A stretch of 64,000 nt of DNA from Eledone cirrhosa (Eukaryota), in NCBI GenBank assembly GCA_964016885.1, contig OZ024740.1, positions 119,598,001 to 119,662,000 on the forward strand, in the 5' to 3' direction. Below are positions 20,617 to 60,645 of the stretch, piece after piece. Position 1 is the stretch's first letter. Every line of letters begins with the position of its first letter. The notes under the pieces were generated by a model. The model did not search any database. It saw only the letters and a program-made list of their open reading frames with translations, and was not told the origin of the DNA. A program made the translations under genes and the position numbers.

Positions 20617-20948
20617 GTGGAGGCACATGGCTTAGTGGTTAGAGCATTGGCCTTGCAATCGAAAGGTTGTGAGTTCAATTCTCAGATCGGGTGATGTGTT
20701 GTTTCCTTGAGCAAGACACTTTATTTCAAATTGCCCCAGTTTACTCAGCTGTAGAAATGAGATGATACGGACTGGGGTCCCTATCATTCCACTGTAAAGT
20801 GGTCATGTAGGCGCCACGGAAAAAAAGCACCTCACTGTAAATGAGGTTGGTGTTAGGAAAGGCATCCAGCTGTAGAAATCAAGCCAGAATCAGTTCCCGT
20901 CCCACCCTTGCAAGCAGGGAAAAAGTGGACATAAAATGATGATGATGA
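20617..20948 (+). mobile_element. tRNA/CORE SINE with an RTE-derived 3' tail
   Basis: A box tggcttagtggtt, B box gagttcaattc, CORE-like motif, RTE 3'UTR sequence, (GAT)n tail; sister copy at 41079-41417 (-). Confidence 0.88.
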
Positions 20949-20994
20949 TTAAAATACAAATATTAATAAAATAGATGTTCTTTTGATCAATTAA

Positions 20995-21047
20995 ATTTTA
21001 TTATACATATTTCAGAGGTACAAGAGTACGTCCTCATCAGACAAAAT
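20995..21047 (-). ncRNA. Minimal type I hammerhead ribozyme
   Basis: attttgt-CTGATGA-GGACGTAC tctt GTACCTCT-GAAA-TATGTA-TA-ataaaat on the minus strand. Confidence 0.75.
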
Positions 21048-21146
21048 ATAATGATACATGACATACCCTGAGGTGTTAAATGGTTAAGATTTAATCAAGG
21101 TAGACTACCTTGATTTAACATCTCAGGGTATGTCATGTATCATTAT

Positions 21147-21199
21147 ATTTTGTCTGATGAGGATGTACTGTTGTACCTCTGAAATATGTATAATAAAAT
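21147..21199 (+). ncRNA. Minimal type I hammerhead ribozyme
   Basis: attttgt-CTGATGA-GGATGTAC tgtt GTACCTCT-GAAA-TATGTA-TA-ataaaat; stems I, II and a minimal III; AUA triplet. Confidence 0.75.
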
Positions 21200-55850: not shown

Positions 55851-55867
55851 TATATATATATATATAG

Positions 55868-57835
55868 TTAGGTAATAAACAACATAAGATAATTATTTCA
55901 TTATTTCATTTCTTGAAAGCAGATATTATCTCTGTTTTCAGTCGTCAGAATGAATTAAAAAAATATGGTGTTGTTATGAAATATGGATTTGAAAACAAAA
56001 ATATTCAAGAAATATGAAAGGGAGGCTGAGAAACAAACGGACGAAAAAGAAGGGTAGAAAAAATATATAAATAAATATATATAAAAAAAACAATAAATAT
56101 CCAGAACGTAAGCAGACACACTAAAGCACGCACATATACTTAAAAGGTAAGAAGACGCATACTTTATAACATAAGCGTATTAGCGTTTACAGACAGGAAC
56201 ATAAATACATATACATAAAGTAATAAATAAATAAATGAATAAGAACAAAAAATATACAGTCAACAAAATAGGCAAAAGGGAGACGTATTGACAGCGATAA
56301 GTGTGAGGGGGTGGGGAATAAAGACAATTTAAAAAAGAAACATATACACGGGATGTCCATATACAAATATATATACATAAATATACACATACATACATAC
56401 ACACACACACACACACACACATATGTACATGCATAAATACTCATACACACGTATAAAAACACACACATATATATGCATGTGTGTATATATATATATATAC
56501 ATAAATATATAAAATAAACATATGTACACGCACACACACATGCTTGCAAAAATAAATATACACATACACAACCACACACGTATATATAAAAACATGTATA
56601 CAACCATATTACACACGCAAACACATACATACACAAAAAGGTCTACAATAAAGAGCATAGGTTCATAACCTACGTACATACGTAAACAAATGCGTGCGCG
56701 CGCACACGCACGTAATAAAATCAACGCACGCGTACAAAAACCATACGTAAATCCATACACACAAAAAACAAAAGTATATATACAGCCGCATACACACACA
56801 TATACGTAACCACATACATATAACCATATAAATATAATAAACATATACAAACACACACACATATATATATATAAACAAACACACATATATACGTATATAT
56901 ACACACACACATACATATATATACCTACACACATATATATATATATACAAACACATACATATATATATACACACGTACACACACACACACACACACACAC
57001 ACATATATATATACACACGTACACATACACACACAGACACACACGTACAATAAAAAATCAAAATACTATAAATGTATGTACACATAAGCCTGACTACATA
57101 AGCGCCCGCACACAACCCTATATAAGTACAATAAAAGAGCTAGTAGGTAAGTAAGGACAAAAGGGGAGTTAAACTGAAATAAAATAATAAACACAATTAT
57201 TAAGAACAGGTAAGGGAAAATAGTGTTGTAAAAGGATTGTGATGAGATCTAGATACGAGTATCTGGTTAAAAAGTGAACTGAGTAAAGTATAAAGGTGGT
57301 GGGTGTGTATGTGTAAAAGGTAAGGTAGAAAATAGGGGGGGGGGGTTATAAGGCACTGAACAAAATTATAAAATATAAATAAAAAGGTATATAGAAGGTG
57401 ATGAGGGAGAAACAGTATATATAGGTAGAAAGTATGAGTTCATAAGATTCGTGGTGAGTGGAAGGCGTGATGAGTAAAGAAGAAGCTCAAGCTGGTTGAG
57501 TAATCGTAGGAATGTTAATCCAGTTAAATAGTAGATGCGATTTCAGATGTGGATAACATCTAAAGATCTCGGTCTTAGAGTTGAGGCAAGTGGAAGGGCC
57601 TTTCAAGAATTCTAAATTTTTCCGTGGAGAATTCTAAATTTTTCCGTGGTGCACAAAGAACATTTATTTGTGCCTCTTTGTTATTCGCTTGAATGGTCTA
57701 AAATAGACCAATCAATAGTATCCGGAATGTTTTTGTCTGTAAATTCCGACACTTTACTTGCCAGCGCCGTTGCAGTTTATTTATCAGGGTATTTAAAAGA
57801 AGCATCATGTGCATAATATCTTGTTCTGAATCGCA
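55868..57835 (-). mobile_element. Penelope-like element 3' remnant (GIY-YIG C-terminus, long 3' region, hammerhead at 55897-55954)
   Basis: RFRTRYYAHDASF...TALASKV...IDWSILD...CSLCTTEKFRIL; ttcatt-CTGACGA-cTGAAAACAGA..TCTGCTTTCAa-GAAA. Confidence 0.75.
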
Positions 57836-57844
57836 TATATATAT

Positions 57845-60645
57845 AGTATAAAAGAGAAAACACAGGTAAGCATTAAAAAGGATTTATCCAGGTATTTACG
57901 ACCGTTTCGTTGGTAACTGCAACCTTATATTGCTATATGCAAATAGGAACTACTCAATAATAATTGTTGTTCACGTCCAAATTTTCAAAGTAGTGAGTAA
58001 GTTACTCTTAAAAAGTTTTTAATATACAGAAAAACATTTTTTTGGAATTGTATTTACATAGAGAGAGAGAGGAAGAGGAATTAGAAAGTGGAGAGACAAA
58101 CGGAATAGTATAGAGAGAGAGGAAGGGGGATAAGAATTAGGAAGTAGAGTGACAAACTGAGATGGGGGGGGGGGGTAGAGGTGGAAGGATTCCTTGATCA
58201 GTTTTGATACGTAGACTTCATGTCGTCGATTTATAGTGTAGTGAGTTAAAGAGAATTAAATGGTTTATAGTGGGAGGGATGGAGAGAGAGGGATGAGGGG
58301 GAGATAGAGAGATAAATATATATAAAAAAAATAAAAATAAAGAAGGGGAGAGAAAGAAGAAAAGAAAAGATAGCCAAAAAGGGGAGAGAAGAAAACGAAA
58401 AGAAATAGAAAAGGAATGAAGGAGAAGGGAGGGATATAGGTCTTGGTTTTTGTGGGTAATTAAAGGGGTTAGATACAATAAGAGGGTAGAAAGTCTAAGT
58501 ATATGCAGTTTGTCAGGTGGTAGTAAGAGGTTAAGGGTTCGATTTGCATTTGTAATGCGAAAACTTTTCTTTGAGTCTATGGTTACAATAAATTGATCTT
58601 TCGATTTTATTGTTGAGTAACTTATTCTTCGAACTCAAAATGTGGAACAGCTCAAGGCTACATAATCGACAGCTTCTCATACCACTCCGATATGGGGGCG
58701 CGTTCGATAATGTTTTCCCCTTCAGGGTGTATTGATGGTTACTTTCCCTCAGTTGCCAGGTCTTGTTTGCAAGGGTAGTTACATAACAATGCTGGGAATG
58801 TTTATTTGCGTAACGGTGCACAGTACTACAATACCGCACTAGACAAGACAGGCCACTTAGATAGAGTAGAATATATAGATGAGAGCCTCCGCAAAGCGCA
58901 CACGTACACGCATAACACAAACTCCAGATACACGCACACACGCATAGAACTACAAACTATACTGTAAATAGAAATATAACATCGAAATCAAGCAAGTCAC
59001 GCAGTAGAAAATATATTTGTTTATAACCCCATATTTAACACCTCTATTAGTACTAACCTACACTCTACCTTCTTTAGAATAATAAATAAGCACTTTCCAG
59101 ATTCACATAGATACGGCAAAATCCTTAACACTAAATCTATTAGACTATCTTACTCCACGGCACCAAACATAGAGGCACACATTAAGATGCTTAACGCTAA
59201 AAAGATACATAACAACACCAGAACACAATTTATAACAATAACAATACAATCACCATTGAACACAACAGAATATCTAATACACAACCACCCACTAATAGGC
59301 AAACAAAACGTAACACACTTGTACAGGCATCGCAGCCCACCAATAATGCCAAAGTTGCTCATGACAAGAATTATAACTGCCACCTACCTGAAACCTGTCC
59401 ATTACATAATGAATGTATGCAGTCTAACCTGGTTTACAAATGCACAGTAGAATCAGACAATCAGAAATGGTATTACATCGGAGCGACTGGGAATACATTT
59501 AAAGCCCGTTGGTATACACATCGTTACGCAATGAAACATTCCCAGCATCGTTATGTAACTACCCTTGCAAACAAGACCTGGCAACTGAGGGAAAGTAACC
59601 ATCAATACACCCTGAAGTGGAAAAATTATCGAACGCGCCCCCATATCGGAATGGTATGAGAAGCTGTTGATTATGTGACCTTGAGCTGTTCCACATTTTG
59701 AGTTCGAAGAATAAGTTACTCAACAATAAAATCCAAAGATCAATTTATTGTAACCATAGACCTAAAGAAAAGTTTTCGCACTACAAGTGCAAATCGAACC
59801 CTTAACCTCTTACTACCACCTGACAAACTGCATATACTTAGACTTTCTACCCTCTTATTGTATCTAACCCCTTTATTTACCCACAAAACCAATACCTATA
59901 TCCCTCCCTTCTCCTTCATTCCTTTTCTATTTCTTTTCTTTTTTTCTGTCCTCTTTTTGGCTATCTTTTCTTTTCTTCTTTCTCTCCCCCCCCCCCCCTT
60001 CTTTATTTTAATTTTTATTTTTTATATATATATATTTATCTCTCTATCTCCCCCCTCCTCTCTCTCTCTCTCTCCATGCCTCCCACTATAAACAATTTAA
60101 TTCTATTTAACTCACTACACTATAAATCGACGACATGAAGTCTACGTATCAAAGCTGATCAAGGAATCCTTCCACCTGCTACCCCTCCCTCCATCTCAGT
60201 TTGTCACCCTACTTCCTAATTCTTCTCCCCTTTCCTCTCTCTCTATACTATTCCGTTTGTCCCTCCACTTTCTAATTCCTCTTCCTCTCTCTCTATACTA
60301 GTAAATACAAATCCAAAAAAATGTTTTTATATATATTAAGAACTTTTTAAGAGTAACTTACTATTTTGAAAATTTGGATTTGAACAACAATTATTATTGA
60401 GTGGCTGCTATTTGCAGTATAGCAATATAAGGTTGCACTTACCAATGAAACGGTCGTAAATACCTGGATAAAATCCTTTTTAATGCTTACCTGTGTTTTC
60501 TCTTTTATACTTTATACTCCAAGATTGAACGGAATTCTTACAAACTTGTGGAGTTACCCCTAACCGTACGTTGAAACCGTCCATGAGACTGGCTTTCTTA
60601 ACCACGAACTGGATCACAATAAGCAATTTTCTGCTTCCCTAACTA
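57845..60645 (+). mobile_element. 5'-truncated Penelope-like element with a ~975-bp inverted pseudo-LTR
   Basis: Arms 57845-58819 and 59517-60511; ORF remnant INKHFPDSHRYGKILNTKSIRLSYSTAPN, NLVYKCTV...YYIGATGNTFKARWYTH (GIY-YIG) and CxLCxLE. Confidence 0.92.

Follow-up and report, generated by a model that had tools for sequence, protein, structure and literature searches.

Fold-back repeats in (TA)n tracts of the Eledone cirrhosa genome are probably hammerhead-bearing ends of Penelope-like elements

Introduction

What are the fold-back repeats that carry hammerhead ribozyme motifs and sit in (TA)n tracts at positions 20948–60645 of a 64,000-nt stretch of the Eledone cirrhosa genome, and are they small, mostly non-autonomous units, as a sequence-only reading of the stretch had proposed? 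The whole stretch (G000:C1:119598001-119662000 within a 3.0-Gb genome; hereafter the window) has a GC content of 35% and is rich in (TA)n and in remnants of long interspersed nuclear elements (LINEs), which we take to be RTE-like. We conclude, with a probability of roughly 0.88, that the repeats are the 3′ pseudo-long terminal repeat (pLTR) ends, 5′-truncated and often 5′-inverted, of at least eight families of Penelope-like element (PLE) inserted into (TA)n, and that each family carries a type I hammerhead that likely cleaves the element RNA as a dimer. The layout (inverted copy, pLTR, body, pLTR and tail), the coding status, the two fixed 3′ ends of each family, the (TA)n adjacency and the conservation of the hammerheads were all read directly from the DNA.

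The eight repeat families, each with a hammerhead, are labelled A–H, and L-numbers denote loci fetched from the same genome. Five families are coding (A, G and H of the Hydra clade; D and E of Neptune/Nematis type) and three are non-coding (B, C and F). The system itself is of a known kind, and an octopus Hydra family with a hammerhead and a (TA)n preference has already been published. What this genome adds is a six-figure, lineage-specific hammerhead variant, a counted one-tail rule and non-coding dependants that include a retrozyme-sized unit.

Genome-wide, a first look at the DNA level yielded 1,680 candidates for A, 1,411 for B, 2,285 for C, 2,110 for D, 791 for E, 3,157 for F and 1,180 for G, and an endonuclease (EN) protein search yielded 47,128 for H; none of these figures is a copy number. 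Forty candidates were scored for each of families A–G and 150 for H.

Type I hammerheads define eight families

Using a strict type I descriptor, we found exactly five perfect-core sites in the window (21147–21199(+), 20995–21047(−), 40871–40928(+), 44175–44248(−) and 53565–53608(+)) and none in any of 25 local shuffles. Allowing one core mismatch added a single site, which is inside the shuffle range (mean 0.48). An Rfam profile search of the window at E ≤ 1 returned 85 matches, none of them a hammerhead. The sequence-only reading had named CUGANGA…GAAA motifs at these five places, where they are intact, and at others that turned out to be damaged or variant members of real families. The hammerhead at 53024(−), family D, has a C.U break in stem I that is frequent in that family, and that at 54941, family E, has the core UUGAAAA, a U3–A8 variant found in 25 of 25 copies; our own initial view of this core as decayed was dropped, as U3–A8 is a described variant. 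Both family F hammerheads in the window are damaged (C3→U at 55366, A9→C at 55683) in a family that is otherwise canonical, and the family G hammerhead at 55897 is damaged in helix III, which at family level reads ACCACUGGU. The eighth family, H, was missing from that list and was at first also taken by us to lack a hammerhead; a candidate lies at 60362–60462(+), with an inverted copy near 57908(−).

Among fetched copies, core and GAAA box were intact in 44/44 for A, 33/33 for B, 36/38 for C, 24/27 for D, 25/25 for E, 17/26 for F, 21/24 for G and 21/21 for H, counts that lean towards young copies because the fetched copies are the best matches to the window. All family hammerheads are type I and in sense to the element. 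Across the families we found the core, helices I–III and covariation of a hammerhead, with helix I weak in E. A, B, E, F and H have a self-complementary helix III; so do C and G when judged by the family sequence, apart from the centre base in G. The proposal that the hammerheads lie mostly within inverted repeats holds for four of the eight elements (A, D, F and H), which have one in both arms; the 5′ inversions of B and C contain no hammerhead, and E and G have no inversion.

Coding families A, D, E, G and H

The family A insertion (20948–21346(+)) consists of the head-to-head ends of a coding Hydra-clade PLE, the left arm tailless and the right arm with a tail of ~100 nt, followed by (TA)n. 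Its sense hammerhead (21147–21199(+)) has a 7-bp stem I, G.U at 10.1–11.1, U.C at pair 4 of stem II (C.C in the family), helix III AUAUGUAU and a predicted cut after 21192; the inverted copy (20995–21047(−)) has C.C at pair 4. A longer A unit, L197, comprises an inverted pLTR, a pLTR, broken reverse transcriptase (RT) and EN frames that hold DKT and CxCX5C, and, 4.07 kb further along, a second pLTR, which bears out the expectation that PLE insertions here carry inverted pLTRs.

Positions 52825–60643 form a nest of five families with (TA)n between them. Family D (52825–53819(+)) is represented by the head-to-head ends of a coding Neptune/Nematis-type PLE, with hammerheads at 53565–53608(+) and 53024–53067(−) and a SINE-like (short interspersed nuclear element-like) repeat inside the left arm at 53066–53257. 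Family E (54069–55130(+)) is the 3′ part of a coding element of the same type, with a U3–A8 hammerhead (core 54946–54952, GAAA at 54974, ACCGGU, weak stem I). Family G (55866–57832(−)) is a 5′-truncated coding Hydra-clade PLE with its hammerhead at 55897–55954 and, at its 5′ end, a Hydra EN remnant 73–83% like that of L207. Family H (57845–60643(+)), also a coding Hydra-clade PLE, has an RT thumb and GIY-YIG remnant at 58818–59727, a ~1-kb inverted copy (57840–58818 of 59519–60516) and a tail of ~130 nt at the right end only. Its candidate hammerhead (60362–60462(+)) combines a U3–A8 core with U.U, 4 bp and a stem II region of ~74 nt, helix III ACGGUCGU and a 4-bp stem I. Further hammerhead families with H-like stem II regions of ~75–90 nt were seen at L008:1103, L141:1988, L189:2808, L090:2902 and L006:2668.

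A PLE origin had been proposed for the repeats, and it is upheld by RT and GIY-YIG frames upstream of the family ends. Of 68 homologues, the only one labelled with an organism comes from Argonauta, which points to a cephalopod host. The most complete unit, H L126, has pLTRs at 2644–2915 and 6366–6637 that are 98% identical and flank a 768-aa RT–EN frame with RWK, DKT and CxCX5C. RT followed by a C-terminal GIY-YIG domain lies in one frame in H L126 and in L312 (821 codons), and in broken pieces in A, D, E and G; L311 has an open frame of 775 codons. The long Hydra-type frames of L312 (2129–4591) and L311 (2653–4977) have an Asn/Thr-rich insert before the EN linker, recalling the N-rich inserts of Adineta Penelope. 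Direct pLTRs arise from partial tandems in L126, L197, L199, L200, L202 and L212. For D, 16 of 35 hammerhead copies have a D-type frame within 2.5 kb upstream in sense, 134–320 nt upstream in the 14 that were listed. The frames upstream of D (L109/L210) and E (L208) hold an RT thumb, a CX4CxxC linker and GIY-YIG, and are therefore of Neptune or Nematis type; their linkers fit the CX2-5CxxC form of these two clades taken together. No intact frame was seen among the D and E loci examined. The Hydra marks are the CxCX5C linker in A, G and H and DKT in A and H (the N-terminal part of G lies outside the sequence seen); RWK is present in H (L126) and RWI in L311, the corresponding region of A and G lying outside the sequence seen. 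Insertion in (TA)n with the canonical Hydra hammerhead is found for A, G and H, the hammerhead of H being a variant, and unit lengths (3.7 kb for H, 4.07 kb for A) exceed the Hydra length of <3 kb, which is typical and not strict.

At the level of families, therefore, the view that the system is mostly non-autonomous does not hold: in A, D, E, G and H, longer copies have sense RT and GIY-YIG frames upstream, and truncated or decayed copies in the window do not make a family non-autonomous. Three PLE coding remnants had been counted in the window. Protein matches do place three within the 20948–60645 span, namely 51166–51437(+), a separate PLE copy with a decayed Neptune/Nematis-type RT thumb, 57443–57845(−) and 58534–59802; a further one lies outside it at 7427–7990, with a weak match at 41860–42160.

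Non-coding families B, C and F

The family B insertion (40065–40979(+)) is the last ~750 nt of a non-coding, PLE-like unit of 2.7–2.9 kb, with a 160-nt 5′ inversion (40065–40224) and a tailless end at (TA)n. Its hammerhead (40871–40928(+)) has U.U, 2 bp and C.C at pair 4, helix III AUGAUCAU and a predicted cut after 40924. Four full units measured 2,731–2,923 nt, and the family is young, its top 40 copies being 99% alike. Family C (44046–45610(−)) is a non-coding 1.4-kb unit (1,395 nt in the one unit measured) with a tailed end and a 5′ inversion (45333–45610 of 44312–44593); its hammerhead (44175–44248(−)) has U.U, 2 bp, C.C at pair 4, a long stem II and helix III AUACAUAU (family AUAUAUAU). 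Both share the layout of the coding families and have no frame longer than 86 codons from ATG.

Family F (55196–55847(+)) is a non-coding unit with a 339-nt period, present as 1.2 units plus an inverted copy, with hammerheads at 55366–55410(−) and 55683–55725(+). Copies exceed one unit in 13 of 20 loci, and the upstream part is the family's own 3′ end, which is what a multimeric or circular template should yield. In 2 of 20 loci (L158 and L159, a duplicated pair), two hammerheads on the same strand are spaced by one period. Genome-wide there are 222 intact F cores (control 0), and these are dispersed, with no two within 1 kb of each other among the 100 listed. At 339 nt and with a canonical type I hammerhead, F falls within the definition of a retrozyme monomer (non-coding, 170–400 nt). 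Only F is of retrozyme size; the units of A–E, G and H measure 1.4–4.1 kb, and five of the families are coding.

No coding remnant was found in B, C or F, either with hidden Markov models (best E 7.3, against 9e-91 for the A control) or with tblastn at E 0.01. All three nevertheless bear the insertion signature of the coding PLEs. Two possible partners were rejected. A Poseidon-like frame beside a C copy (L095/L213) is downstream, on the other strand and present at only one of 43 C copies, and in L199 the Hydra frame next to B is a neighbour lying beyond the (TA)n borders of B. An inverted repeat at 39308–40044, with 122-nt arms, was likewise rejected as part of B; it is a separate repeat that follows a copy of a D-like family (38985–39275(+)) cut off inside its hammerhead (core 39262).

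(TA)n targets and the one-tail rule

An unselected sample of six 100-kb blocks, picked before inspection, contained 33 hammerheads (0–20 per block) in 20 clusters, compared with 0–3 in five shuffles and 2 in a reversed control. This density scales to ~165,000 hammerheads genome-wide, with wide uncertainty. It is uneven across blocks (L214–L273), at 20 per 100 kb where GC is 34% and 0–1 where GC is 44–48%. Twenty-nine of the 33 have (TA)5 within 250 nt downstream, compared with 16% of random points, and the predicted enrichment beside (TA)n is thereby borne out genome-wide as well as in the window. With partners sought within 6 kb, 14 of the 33 were head-to-head, 2 convergent and 4 tandem.

Each family has two main 3′ ends, and head-to-head arms combine them in a regular way. 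After overlapping loci were merged and the outermost copies used, 87 of 90 distinct head-to-head pairs from 11 families joined one long and one short end (A 17/18, B 9/9, C 10/10, D 6/7, E 5/5, F 6/6, G 5/5 and H 6/6; 10/10, 12/13 and 1/1 in three further families). The three exceptions (L005, L004 and L121) have two short or interrupted ends, and a few short ends stop before the standard tailless position. That one of two inverted pLTRs can carry a tail has already been published (PMC3846280, PMC8557442; these and the other papers cited by accession are used here for the accessible portions of their text). The tail has been traced to two internal RT start sites, and both target strands are nicked and extended in vitro (PMC11167929).

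A fixed opposition in stem II

Families A, B and C share a mark in stem II: after three variable positions, C faces C or U at pair 4 (C.Y). The exact pattern (C at 10.4, a pyrimidine at 11.4 and helix III AURYRYAU) has 100,402 matches genome-wide, about one per 30 kb, against 11 in the reversed control; these counts are of copies, not independent events. Any other base at 10.4 gave 5,986 matches (control 208), and C at 10.4 with a purine opposite gave 4,232 (control 70). Among loci not chosen by the pattern, 181 copies formed 10 clusters, nine with C.C and one with C.U, in which neighbouring pairs switch among A–U, G–C, U–A, C–G and G–U; with all loci included, 11 of 11 clusters have C.C or C.U. 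In a pairing shuffle 89 of 90 cells were paired (mean 64), but pairing had itself been a selection rule, which makes the test circular in part; what we use is limited to the switching of pair identity and the free position 4. Fourteen of 20 hand-picked loci of the C.Y subclass had Hydra-type protein matches, with open frames of up to 821 codons. A decayed copy of another C.Y family, its stem II 12 nt short, lies at 22078–22460(−) (core 22278) in the window; its relatives L110, L179, L286 and L319 are complete.

About 150,000 short-stem-III variants were reportedly described by Lunse et al. in 2017. That work may describe this subclass; we found no description of the C.Y mismatch in the hammerhead papers that our literature searches listed. 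C.Y at pair 4 occurs in 0 of 26 published Hydra hammerhead rows in the accessible part of PMC8557442, and C at 10.4 facing C or U in 0 of 48 sense hammerheads among 80 metagenomic Hydra-type loci. None was seen in the accessible alignment rows of the PMC4209133 supplement, where the figure text is garbled, and the octopus repeat paper makes no mention of a hammerhead.

Other repeats in the window

A fold-back repeat at 22870–23460 (22908–23336) has a hammerhead-like core at 22933(−) in which GAAA reads AAAA; it has one relative, in L284. Repeats at 51649–51718(−) and 12677–12737(−) have a CUGAUGA core and hairpin with GACA for GAAA, as do their relatives in L195 and L319, possibly another variant. 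CUGAUGA cores lacking a GAAA box lie at 1885–1990 and 2516–2575(+), and this repeat ends at (TA)n in four other loci (L120, L125, L151 and L168). A SINE-like repeat, set in (TA)n at 20598–20949, where it abuts element A, and at 41081–41436, has a head that resembles a tRNA (28.1 bits for Rfam tRNA, against a cut-off of 29) and a tail of (ATG)n. Four decayed LINE copies (4487–7101, 17697–20291, 33499–35697 and 48256–50354), of which the one scanned encodes RT and a PHD-like finger, and a 93-nt tandem repeat (13796–14441; seven copies, 96% alike) are also present.

Discussion

How would such insertions arise? On the model of published PLE biochemistry, the GIY-YIG nuclease of the element would nick (TA)n, and RT would begin at either of two fixed sites, both downstream of the hammerhead, inside an RNA longer than one unit. 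Early stopping of most copies would produce 5′ truncation. We propose, and think it rather probable, that each of the two nicked strands is extended from a different start site, to give head-to-head arms of which one is tailed and one tailless; the one-tail rule would follow if a single event used one site on each strand. The palindromic helix III could well allow pairing and cleavage between the two hammerheads of a tandem transcript, possibly assisted by the element's own protein. Families B, C and F would very probably borrow the protein of coding families in trans.

It is improbable, in our view, that the window holds mostly a non-autonomous PLE/retrozyme system of small fold-back units. 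Such a system would agree with non-coding B, C and F, with the 339-nt period of F and its many loci of more than one unit, and with the many insertions that are merely 0.1–0.5 kb across. However, coding copies exist in five of eight families, Hydra-type proteins accompany 14 of the 20 hand-picked loci of the large subclass, and arm lengths vary freely, as truncation predicts. Inverted arms with TA borders also recall foldback DNA transposons or miniature inverted-repeat transposable elements (MITEs) that target TA and contain hammerhead-like words by chance. The arms here, though, end unequally and range in span from 64 nt to 6 kb; inversion is limited to a minority of the top copies (13 of 30 A loci and 8 of 25 B loci); and the upstream frames encode RT and GIY-YIG. 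The RT–EN frames and the tail asymmetry largely refute DNA transposons, which we regard as very unlikely indeed.

Whether the hammerheads do anything for their carriers is a closer question. The C.Y opposition may have been merely inherited from one recent ancestor and have no function, with the hammerheads as passive passengers of amplifying elements, an alternative to which we give slightly less than even odds. The coding C.Y carriers do group in a tree of the EN region only, built with unnamed homologues, with modest support (84/92), and C.Y copy counts are dominated by a few families. Yet the carrier proteins are far apart in that tree, on branches of 0.6–0.8 changes per column; in the 10 clusters not chosen by the pattern, both sides of stem I and of pairs 2, 3, 5 and 6 vary, whereas position 4 stays C.C (9) or C.U (1); and few of the 100 listed purine matches have G at 11.4, the base that would pair. 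More tentatively, and with the odds against it, we suggest that one Hydra-PLE lineage has evolved the subclass of >100,000 copies and that its C.C/C.U opposition has a function, as a tertiary contact or as a grip for the element's own protein, and is kept by B and C as a licence for trans mobilization. The one-tail rule, nearly strict and common also to the 339-nt retrozyme-like unit, would then record twin priming, with RT starting at two internal sites, and the insertion of retrozyme-type RNAs by PLE machinery.

Several points weigh against our reading of the repeats as PLE ends with working hammerheads. For the ribozymes, hammerhead cleavage is dispensable for insertion by another PLE, the one tested in vitro, and no RNA sequencing read ends at the site (PMC11167929); PLE hammerheads are weak and protein-assisted in vitro; eight of nine Xenopus dimers show no cleavage (bioRxiv 2026.07.22.740005); and the C.Y mark may be inherited and not selected. 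In our own data, helix III of D (AGAACU) is a poor palindrome, stem I of E has only two contiguous pairs, and minimum-energy folds of single window copies mostly miss the hammerhead (z +0.2 to −2.3), the core often being paired elsewhere. As to PLE origin and insertion, Pfam gave no RT or GIY-YIG name to the two RT/EN remnants of the window that we tested, no autonomous partner of B, C or F was matched by sequence, the 90 pairs were drawn from top-scoring or hand-picked loci, and head-to-head arms are also explained by self-priming on an antisense template (PMC3846280).

Comparison with known systems

The known systems closest to A, G and H are the Hydra-clade PLEs, including Hydra-1_Obim of Octopus bimaculoides (Craig et al. 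2021, PMC8557442), with which they share the C-terminal GIY-YIG domain, DKT, CxCX5C and (TA)n targets. The PLEs in that paper likewise have sense hammerheads with a palindromic helix III of 8–10 nt, and U.U at 10.1–11.1, found here too, is present in 14 of its 26 rows; a U.U at the base of stem II has been described in Hydra elements and in axolotl. In contrast to that set, units here are 3.7–4.1 kb and not <3 kb, H has a U3–A8 core and a stem II region of ~74 nt, and there are non-coding derivatives, of which the accessible Hydra list has none. D and E resemble the Neptune/Nematis PLEs (Craig et al. 2021) in the CX4CxxC linker before GIY-YIG and in Cys and His inside the domain.

The pLTR hammerheads of metazoan PLEs (Cervera and De la Pena 2014, PMC4209133) are, as here, type I with a palindromic helix III. 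They include the extra base after A9 seen in D and the U3–A8 variant seen in E and H, and occur as opposite-strand pairs 100–700 bp apart or, mostly, as solo truncated copies. Those genomes hold thousands (about 9,000 in Xenopus), whereas one subclass alone reaches 100,402 here, and the G10.1–C11.1 pair is not kept in A, B, C, G and H. Animal non-LTR retrozymes (Cervera and De la Pena 2020, PMC7229834; Li et al., bioRxiv 10.64898/2026.07.22.740005) match F in its 339-nt non-coding unit, canonical hammerhead, 4-bp stem II and copies of more than one unit. Unlike them, F, known here from DNA alone, is dispersed and has the insertion marks of PLEs (head-to-head arms, two ends and (TA)n).

Penelope of Adineta vaga and PAc of Anolis (PMC3846280, PMC11167929) also have a tail on one inverted pLTR. 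In these systems a pLTR suffices for trans mobilization and two internal RT start sites define the tail. Tails are 30–40 nt there and ~35–145 nt here, where the one-tail rule is counted over 11 families. Axolotl has 126,247 hammerheads in a genome about nine times larger, and the density here is far above this and the other published counts compared. The origin of head-to-head PLE copies, their targeting of microsatellites and the role of their hammerheads are open questions in the accessible parts of PMC8557442 and PMC11167929; for work on these, the Eledone genome provides young families, non-coding dependants, long open frames and a ribozyme position that does not vary and lends itself to direct mutation.

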